A stretch of 64,000 nucleotides of DNA from a phage. Position numbers and translations under genes: made by a program. Below the pieces are notes generated by a model. It made no database searches and was not told the origin of the DNA. It saw nothing but the letters and a program-made list of their open reading frames with translations. Shown piece after piece: positions 9,853-10,668 of the stretch (its first letter is position 1; every line of letters begins with the position of its first letter). The DNA lies in the NCBI GenBank assembly GCA_021469345.1, contig GCA_021469345.1_3049.1; one strand, 5' to 3'.

Positions 9853-10192
9853 AATTTTGGTTTTATGTATAGGATTAATTTCATTTTCTGCTTCTGCGTC
9901 AGCAGATACATCATATACTGAAATTAGAGAATATGTAAACCGCACTGCGGCAGATTATTGTGGGAAAAATAAAGCATGCCAAGCTGAATTTGCACAGAAA
10001 TTAATATATGCATATAAAGACGGAGAAAGAGATAAATCAAGCAGATACAAAAACGATACATTATTAAAACGATATGCTAAAAAGTGGAATACCTTAGAAT
10101 GTTCAGTTGCGGAGGAGAAAGATAAAGCCGCTTGTCATTCAATGGTTGACCGTTTGGTAGATTCTTATAATCGAGGATTGAGTACTAGATGA
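9845..10192 (+). CDS. secreted/periplasmic hypothetical protein (115 aa)
   Basis: ORF track; signal peptide; T4 vs position. Confidence 0.5.
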   Translation: MTKILVLCIGLISFSASASADTSYTEIREYVNRTAADYCGKNKACQAEFAQKLIYAYKDGERDKSSRYKNDTLLKRYAKKWNTLECSVAEEKDKAACHSMVDRLVDSYNRGLSTR

Positions 10193-10668
10193 TTGTAAAA
10201 TATATCAAGGGCGATATTGTCGCCCTCTTTCTTGAAGGTAATATTATTGCGCACGGGTGCAATTGTTTTCATACAATGGGCAGTGGTGTAGCTGGTCAAT
10301 TAGCAAGAGCCTATCCCAAAATTTTAGAAATAGATAAAACCACTACCGAGTACGGTTCTCGTGATAAATTAGGCGATATGTCTATTGTTTTTAAACATAA
10401 ACCTAATGGTTTTGGCATATGTTATAACTTGTATACGCAATACGAACCAGGTCCTAATCTTGATTATGGTGCTTTAGTAAACTGCATGATAGAATTAAAT
10501 CTACAGGCAGAAACCCTTTTGTTTAAACCAGTAATTTACATTCCACGCATAGGTTGTGGTATTGCTGGCGGCGATTGGGATAAGGTTTCTAAATTAATCG
10601 ACATGTTTACTCCTGATATTGATTTAATAGTGGTGGATTATGAAAGTACATTACCCACATCCGTTTGA
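10189..10668 (+). CDS. macro-domain protein (ADP-ribose binding/processing fold)
   Basis: GCNCFHTMGSGVAG and CGIAGG glycine-rich motifs typical of macro domains. Confidence 0.65.
   Translation: MIVKYIKGDIVALFLEGNIIAHGCNCFHTMGSGVAGQLARAYPKILEIDKTTTEYGSRDKLGDMSIVFKHKPNGFGICYNLYTQYEPGPNLDYGALVNCMIELNLQAETLLFKPVIYIPRIGCGIAGGDWDKVSKLIDMFTPDIDLIVVDYESTLPTSV

Follow-up and report, generated by a model that had tools for sequence, protein, structure and literature searches.

A Tk.4/AdfM-type macrodomain of a T-even phage as a probable glutamine-type ADP-ribosyl glycohydrolase counteracting DarTG2

The open reading frame (ORF) at 10189-10668 of a 64,000-nucleotide (nt) stretch of phage DNA (NCBI GenBank assembly GCA_021469345.1, contig GCA_021469345.1_3049.1; in the following, the window) encodes a macrodomain protein and is, as judged by gene order and homology, the positional orthologue, in the form of a divergent allele, of tk.4 of phage T4, a gene recently named adfM. 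Its product is probably (at a probability of roughly 0.7) a counter-defence macrodomain ADP-ribosyl glycohydrolase, which would reverse the marks set by DarTG2 on phage DNA. The present analysis established the ORF and its macro fold, its shared gene order and homology with T4 tk.4, and the pattern of active-site residues; the phenotype of the T4 knockout and the biochemistry of SCO6735, a macrodomain of Streptomyces coelicolor, were taken from the literature.

That the product is a genuine macrodomain protein is far beyond chance. It matched the Pfam Macro profile (PF01661) with 33.1 bits (gathering score 22; E = 6.2e-8) over profile positions 2-117 of 118, and PHROG 335 with E = 1.6e-71. The AlphaFold2 model of the 159-residue protein, for which an alignment of 59 sequences served as input, had a mean predicted local distance difference test (pLDDT) value of 94.1 and a predicted template modelling (pTM) score of 0.89. 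When this model was compared with the PDB using Foldseek, a probability of 1.00 was obtained for TARG1, Poa1p, BT1257, DarG (of both T. aquaticus and M. tuberculosis), and SCO6735. TARG1 was the best match (E = 4e-10; target-normalised TM-score 0.82), and of the 171 PDB matches at E ≤ 0.001 the top 50 were almost all macrodomains or macrodomain-based designs. The preliminary description of this DNA had read a macro domain from glycine-rich motifs in the ORF and had named a non-macro fold in structure prediction as the refuting outcome; the predicted fold is the macro fold, and the motifs are found in the translation as HGCNCFHTMGSGVAG (residues 22-36) and IGCGIAGG (residues 121-128). Both of these pocket loops are conserved in the family, and binding of ADP-ribose is predicted from them.

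The source phage of the window is a Tequatrovirus. Around tk.4, a 3-kb stretch shares 98.7% identity with Escherichia phage vB_EcoM-UFV09, and in 467 phage records at least 80% of the same stretch is covered. When the gene order was compared with the annotation of T4, F1, and JS98, the window was found to follow the T4 order, regB, vs.1 (with an SLT domain), vs, the macro gene, tk.3 (DUF7202), several small ORFs, and tk, and the macro gene of T4 in the matching slot, between vs and tk.3, is tk.4. The window protein and T4 Tk.4 align over 155 residues without gaps (58% identity; E = 4e-70). The T4 RefSeq note on tk.4 reads 'contains A1pp phosphatase motif'. The preliminary description had placed the gene where T4 has tk.4 and had suspected it to be conserved rather than novel, and both statements hold: homologues at E ≤ 1e-5 numbered 782 in a collection of 5.8 billion proteins, JS98 Tk.4 is 94% identical to the window protein, and the gene is considered conserved and already known because an identical protein has been deposited in GenBank for phage IME340 and because a homologue of the tk.4 product is encoded by 2,774 phage records (Escherichia, Vibrio, Acinetobacter, Pseudomonas, and Bacillus phages). 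Its role in T4 has likewise been reported already. With this distribution, the family of tk.4 ranks among the most widespread macrodomain families in phages.

That role was uncovered when a transposon library of T4 was screened on a host expressing DarTG2; tk.4 was the sole significant hit, and a clean T4 tk.4 knockout was sensitised to DarTG2 (bioRxiv 10.1101/2025.11.20.689424, November 2025; the HIDEN-SEQ preprint). In the same work, the gene was dispensable on plain E. coli K-12 and needed specifically with DarTG2; it received the name adfM ('anti-DarT factor Macrodomain'), and its product, being structurally similar to M. tuberculosis DarG, was inferred to strip ADP-ribose from DNA enzymatically. 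Orphan antitoxins of phages directed against DarT have two precedents, AdfN, a T-even NADAR enzyme acting against DarTG1 (PMC11825919), and gp104 of PhiKZ, which was independently named AdfM and which was found in vitro to free DNA of ADP-ribose linked to thymidine (PMC13309987, Cell Reports 2026). AdfA, the product of gene 61.2, is likewise carried by T-even phages (PMC11825919). Profile searches with the window protein pointed in the same direction, DarG profiles being the only defence-related matches in PADLOC (E = 4.3e-7) and a DarG profile the best match in NCBIfam. The preliminary description had offered two functions for a phage-encoded macrodomain, acting on ADP-ribosylation of the phage's own targets or of host defences; the second option has direct support and counter-defence is the best supported of the two because deletion of tk.4 sensitises T4 to DarTG2.

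According to the mechanism proposed here, the macrodomain would be produced during infection from the regB-vs.1-vs-tk.4 gene string. DarTG2 of the host ADP-ribosylates thymidines in single-stranded phage DNA (PMC11825919, PMC13309987), by which replication is blocked; the macrodomain would take the ADP-ribose into its glycine-rich pocket and hydrolyse the base-ribose bond, so that usable DNA would be restored and replication could resume. Within the pocket, Gln84, held by Asn25, would orient the distal ribose so that an activated water can attack it. In effect, the tk.4 product would be a phage-borne orphan antitoxin.

The residues involved were assessed in an alignment of the window protein, T4 Tk.4, and the PDB-chain sequences (recovered from the search alignments) of M. 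tuberculosis and T. aquaticus DarG, human TARG1, BT1257, and SCO6735. This alignment was regarded as validated because it reproduced all published residue numbers, that is, H24, V25, N27, L29, K34, Q85, G87, K89, G126, and G128 of SCO6735, N22 and K80 of DarG, and K84 and D125 of TARG1. The residues H22, N25, Q84, G122, and G124 are invariant in the 59-60 family members, down to ∼38% identity, as are G23, C26, G33, and A35. Gln84 takes the place of the catalytic lysine of DarG and TARG1, as the corresponding glutamine does in SCO6735, and Ala126 is found at the position of TARG1 Asp125, so that the window protein lacks one of the two residues of the TARG1 dyad. On DNA, SCO6735 removes ADP-ribose linked to thymidine, and it shields S. 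coelicolor against DarT; its Q85A and Q85E variants are inactive and N27S is almost inactive, and the mechanism proposed for it has the glutamine place the distal ribose in reach of an activated water (PMC9411070). It is the sole characterised macrodomain with the residue pattern of the window protein. The chemistry of the window protein is probably SCO6735-like and of the glutamine type, and not the lysine mechanism of DarG; with an invariant glutamine where DarG has its lysine, SCO6735, not DarG, is the protein on which the phage enzyme should be modeled.

Conservation of these residues also bears on whether hydrolysis is required at all. Catalytically dead SCO6735 (Q85A), DarG (K80A), and TARG1 (K84A) still inhibit DarT in vitro, SCO6735 most strongly (PMC9411070), and the window protein could accordingly be a mainly stoichiometric inhibitor, which binds DarT2 or ADP-ribosylated DNA and blocks the toxin without hydrolysis. 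A toxin-specific contact surface would also account for the unusually diverse alleles of tk.4 (see below). However, the family-wide invariance of the SCO6735-type set argues that catalysis is under selection, and a counterpart of the C-terminal toxin-binding domain of DarG is missing from the 159-residue protein; a mainly inhibitory action is considered quite unlikely. Alternatively, substrates could be broader or different, including uracil-linked ADP-ribose on RNA or bases marked by another, possibly undiscovered, defence, with reversal of DarT2 marks being one activity among several. On RNA, SCO6735, DarG, and TARG1 remove ADP-ribose from uracil as well (PMC13036486), and for a factor with only one target the family is widely distributed, occurring in ∼2,770 records of phages with very different hosts, but the T4 screen reports a DarTG2 phenotype only, and a low probability is assigned to this possibility. 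Both alternatives are compatible with an anti-DarT2 glycohydrolase.

We infer the same activity and target for the window allele as for that of T4, to which it is 58% identical. Several points weigh against doing so. The T4 allele is the only one that has been tested, and the evidence on it is genetic and comes from a preprint. In the literature searched, no published biochemistry was found for any member of the Tk.4 family; for the T4 gene, only the HIDEN-SEQ preprint was retrieved, and neither the CmdTAC paper nor the type II Thoeris preprint contained anything on the family. The lysines that position DNA in SCO6735 (Lys34 and Lys89; K29 and R84 in DarG) correspond to Ser32 and Gly88 in the window protein, and binding of DNA would therefore need other residues. 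Moreover, the phosphate-binding loop of the window protein, IGCGIAGGDW, differs from IGAGIGKGNW of the tested T4 allele. The former is the consensus in at least 90% of the family and is near-exact in SCO6735 and BT1257, and the T4 form is in the minority; judging from the alignment, it is the experimentally tested allele that is atypical in this loop.

Finally, Poa1p, an ADP-ribose-1''-phosphate phosphatase, matches the window protein in sequence (E = 1.8e-9) and fold (Foldseek E = 2.4e-9) nearly as well as the DNA-acting relatives do. As a metabolite enzyme of this type, the protein would dephosphorylate ADP-ribose-1''-phosphate or deacetylate O-acetyl-ADP-ribose. The 'phosphatase' label in T4 RefSeq and in PHROG 335 stems from such a reading, and an HxCNC motif is common to the window protein and Poa1p (IHSCNC). 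Strong similarity is confined to the N-terminal half, though, with 29.4 bits for residues 3-79 versus 9.9 bits for the C-terminal loop. Of the three Poa1p residues mutated by the depositors of the structure, a partial hand alignment on Poa1p fragments places His23 at H22, Ser30 at Thr29, and Phe152 at Ala126. We know of no T4 pathway that makes ADP-ribose-1''-phosphate. Because, in addition, a metabolite enzyme would leave the DarTG2-specific fitness loss of T4 tk.4 mutants unexplained, this function is regarded as distinctly improbable. We suggest 'Tk.4/AdfM-type macrodomain, putative anti-DarT2 ADP-ribosyl glycohydrolase' as the annotation, in place of 'phosphatase' and 'hypothetical protein' in the databases.

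The window also encodes the ADP-ribosyltransferases ModB and ModA in tandem, as the preliminary description had stated (Table 1), and the macrodomain could, in principle, erase or read the phage's own marks, that is, arginine-linked ADP-ribose or RNA chains attached to host proteins by Alt, ModA, and ModB. An arginine-specific macrodomain, MavL of Legionella, is listed among the references of PMC13036486, which makes such chemistry not impossible. The proposed connection found no support, however. The mod genes lie 46 kb from tk.4, in different transcription units, and where a functional link was looked for, co-occurrence alone was found, which is uninformative because essentially all T-even phages carry both tk.4 and the mod genes. 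The nearest characterised relatives act on base- or glutamate-linked ADP-ribose or on ADP-ribose metabolites, none having been shown to act on the arginine-linked form. In the T4 screen, moreover, the phage could do without tk.4 on plain E. coli K-12 and needed it specifically in the presence of DarTG2. This function is considered very unlikely indeed, and removal of DarTG2 marks remains the preferred one.

The body of tk.4 appears to differ in origin from its surroundings. Nucleotide identity along the locus was determined by sliding comparison with T4 and with Dhakavirus JS98, and the two patterns were found to be reversed (Table 1), which indicates, at the level of nucleotide identity, that a T4-like backbone carries a Dhakavirus-like segment comprising tk.4 and small ORFs. 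Within the second island of low identity to T4, JS98-like blocks were located at 10913-11002 and 11273-11452. The pattern points to exchange of a tk.4-tk.1 module between genera. Three groups of alleles were distinguished: 319 phage records encode the window type and 224 the T4 type (each with at least 90% protein identity), and 159 records a third group, the protein of which is 80-90% identical to that of T4. Swapping of such segments is typical of the variable regions of T-even phages and of counter-defence genes. At the tk.4 locus, it suggests that selection is acting. A further-reaching interpretation, which we regard as unlikely, is that tk.4 is a hot-swapped counter-defence cassette, the body of which crossed the genus boundary and the alleles of which differ in function. 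Alleles could then differ in the DarT2 homologues they neutralise, via contact with the toxin besides hydrolysis, or in the base from which ADP-ribose is removed, thymidine (DNA) or uracil (RNA). If true, phage macrodomains of the glutamine type would form a second anti-DarT2 class, with its own mechanism and recruited independently, beside the lysine-type AdfM of PhiKZ.

Table 1. Features of the tk.4 locus and of the mod genes in the window, with nucleotide identities along the locus to T4 and JS98.
Feature	Position	Strand	Basis or remark	Identity to T4	Identity to JS98
tk.4/adfM-type macrodomain coding sequence	10189..10668	+	ATG start, 159 residues; translated ORF		
ATGA, tk.4 start codon overlapping vs stop codon	10189..10192	+	Direct sequence reading; T4 arranged likewise		
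Pocket loop 1 (ADP-ribose), residues 22-36, HGCNCFHTMGSGVAG	10252..10296	+	His22/Asn25 align with SCO6735 His24/Asn27 and DarG Asn22		
Gln84 codon, CAA	10438..10440	+	Aligns with catalytic DarG Lys80 and TARG1 Lys84; equivalent is the essential SCO6735 Gln85		
Phosphate-binding loop, residues 119-130, PRIGCGIAGGDW	10543..10578	+	Gly122/Gly124 align with SCO6735 Gly126/Gly128		
vs (valyl-tRNA synthetase modifier), upstream neighbour fixing synteny	9845..10192	+	phrog_1256, E = 1.7e-39; T4 and F1 annotation		
tk.3 (DUF7202), downstream neighbour fixing synteny	10640..10852	+	Pfam PF23832, E = 1.2e-37, full length; T4 annotation		
Sigma-70-like promoter match ahead of regB, TTTACT-17-TATAAT with upstream TG	8782..8810	+	Promoter scan		
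regB, vs.1, vs	8780-10218			93-100%, mostly 97-100%	48-74%
tk.4 body, divergent cassette	10219-10685	+		42-82%	82-92% (measured over 10193-10642)
tk.3 core	10686-10805			93-100%	73-78%
Small ORFs	10866-11400			10-60%	Mixed: two blocks 82-87%, remainder mostly gaps
tk	11462-12060			97-100%	59-71%
modB (56412-57035) and modA (57032-57634)	56412..57634	+	phrog_832 match; proteins 96% (ModB) and 99% (ModA) identical to those of T4		

tk.4 lies in a densely packed string of genes on the same strand, with overlapping stop and start codons, and tk.3 begins at 10640, within the final 29 nt of tk.4. The ATGA overlap with vs suggests translational coupling within the regB-vs.1-vs-tk.4 string. The promoter match ahead of regB may mark where the transcript including tk.4 begins; the evidence for it is weak because the number of promoter-like sites found by the scan of the tk.4 region was not above that in shuffled sequence. 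A GC-rich hairpin of eight pairs, AGGGCGATATTGTCGCCCT (10208-10226), is located in the first 40 nt of tk.4; it is identical in T4, directly precedes the collapse of identity to T4, and is present in the predicted fold. Its functional significance is doubtful because the predicted stability of the region around it does not exceed that of shuffled sequence (z = -0.72), and no role was assigned to it.

Four other genes of the window were characterised in passing. A homologue of AdfA (T4 gene 61.2) is encoded at 50073-50705 (+; Pfam PF23813, E = 1.4e-137). It is 80% identical to the T4 protein overall, with the first ∼60 residues strongly diverged and the remainder nearly identical. The window thereby holds a further anti-DarT gene, besides tk.4, in which variation is localised. 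A cysteine-rich ORF of 68 residues at 10849-11055 (+) matches a phage zinc-binding domain (Pfam PF23895, E = 2.3e-29); it sits between tk.3 and the tk.2-like ORFs, where no T4 gene is annotated and where JS98 has 'orf102'. vs.1 (9307-9852) encodes an SLT lytic transglycosylase domain (Pfam E = 1.4e-5) behind a hydrophobic, signal-like N-terminus, and the ORF past modA (57758-58507) encodes the anti-sigma factor Srd (phrog_1400, E = 1.2e-99); both are ordinary T4 genes.

Compared with known systems, the window protein is closest to T4 Tk.4 (NP_049723, AdfM), with which it shares the slot between vs and tk.3, similar length (159 versus 155 residues), and the invariant residues including Gln84; the two differ in 42% of residues, mostly past residue 45, and the body of the window gene is Dhakavirus-like. 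In mechanism-related features, SCO6735 (PDB 5e3b), of the ALC1-like class, is the counterpart (sequence E = 8.6e-8; Foldseek E = 1.1e-7). It has the same catalytic glutamine, histidine, and asparagine, the same two loop glycines, and an almost identical PRIGCG(L/I)AGGxW loop, and it is likewise a single domain without a toxin-binding domain. Nevertheless, identity is only 26%, the two DNA-positioning lysines are exchanged in the window protein as described above, and SCO6735, which is induced by DNA damage, is of cellular origin (PMC12879935), whereas the window protein is from a phage. Two matches of the family outside the T-even phages were also recorded. The homologue of the bacterium Pelagimonas phthalicica (40% identity) is chromosomal and stand-alone, with a peptidase M23, an unannotated ORF of 175 residues, and a tryptophan halogenase as neighbours, which recalls the orphan status of SCO6735; at this single locus, where an antitoxin origin was sought, no DarT-like gene was found nearby. 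In a Microbacterium phage, the match to T4 Tk.4 (30% identity, residues 5-151) falls under a feature annotated 'ADP-ribosyltransferase', which may reflect a fusion of a macrodomain with such an enzyme or a macrodomain mistaken for one.

DarG of DarTG2 (T. aquaticus, 5m31 and 5m3e; M. tuberculosis, 5m3i) has the same macro fold (target-normalised TM-score 0.76-0.78), the same conserved asparagine (DarG N22, corresponding to N25), and presumably the same substrate. A true DarG was nevertheless rejected because every DarG-specific membership test failed. The window protein scored 27.8 bits with NCBIfam NF048014 (cut-off 250) and 27.7 bits, over the macro part only, with PADLOC PDLC02990; these profiles of 329-338 positions were matched at positions 2-144 only, that is, without the C-terminal DarT-binding domain. 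The catalytic Lys80 corresponds to Gln84, which is invariant in the Tk.4 family, and the flanking genes are vs and tk.3, with no darT neighbour. TARG1/OARD1 (human, 4j5r) and Poa1p (yeast, 6lfr) share the N-terminal motif and the PRIGCG loop with the window protein (Foldseek E = 4e-10 and 2e-9, respectively). TARG1 differs by its Lys84/Asp125 dyad (Gln84/Ala126 here), and Poa1p by acting as a phosphatase of an ADP-ribose metabolite and, judging from the partial hand alignment, by Phe152 (Ala126 here).

The window protein thus probably works like DarG but is not DarG, and it is also of a different kind from the AdfM of chimalliviruses (PhiKZ gp104). The latter is, likewise, an orphan phage macrodomain countering DarTG2 and bears the same name (PMC13309987), but it is DarG-like, with Asn23/Lys78 as the putative active site (PMC13309987), whereas the window protein is of the glutamine type. 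The name AdfM is currently in use for two phage macrodomains, T4 Tk.4 (glutamine type, with genetic evidence only) and PhiKZ gp104 (lysine type, with biochemical evidence), which appear to be independent recruitments sharing a name by chance and should not be handled as one family. AdfN (gene 30.3, NADAR) and AdfA (gene 61.2) of T4 are T-even anti-DarT factors as well, and AdfN is also an orphan, enzymatic, antitoxin-like eraser; their folds are unrelated to that of the macrodomain, and they target DarTG1 (guanosine), not DarTG2 (thymidine). Together with AdfA and AdfN, the AdfM encoded by tk.4 would be part of a T-even set directed against defences that ADP-ribosylate DNA.

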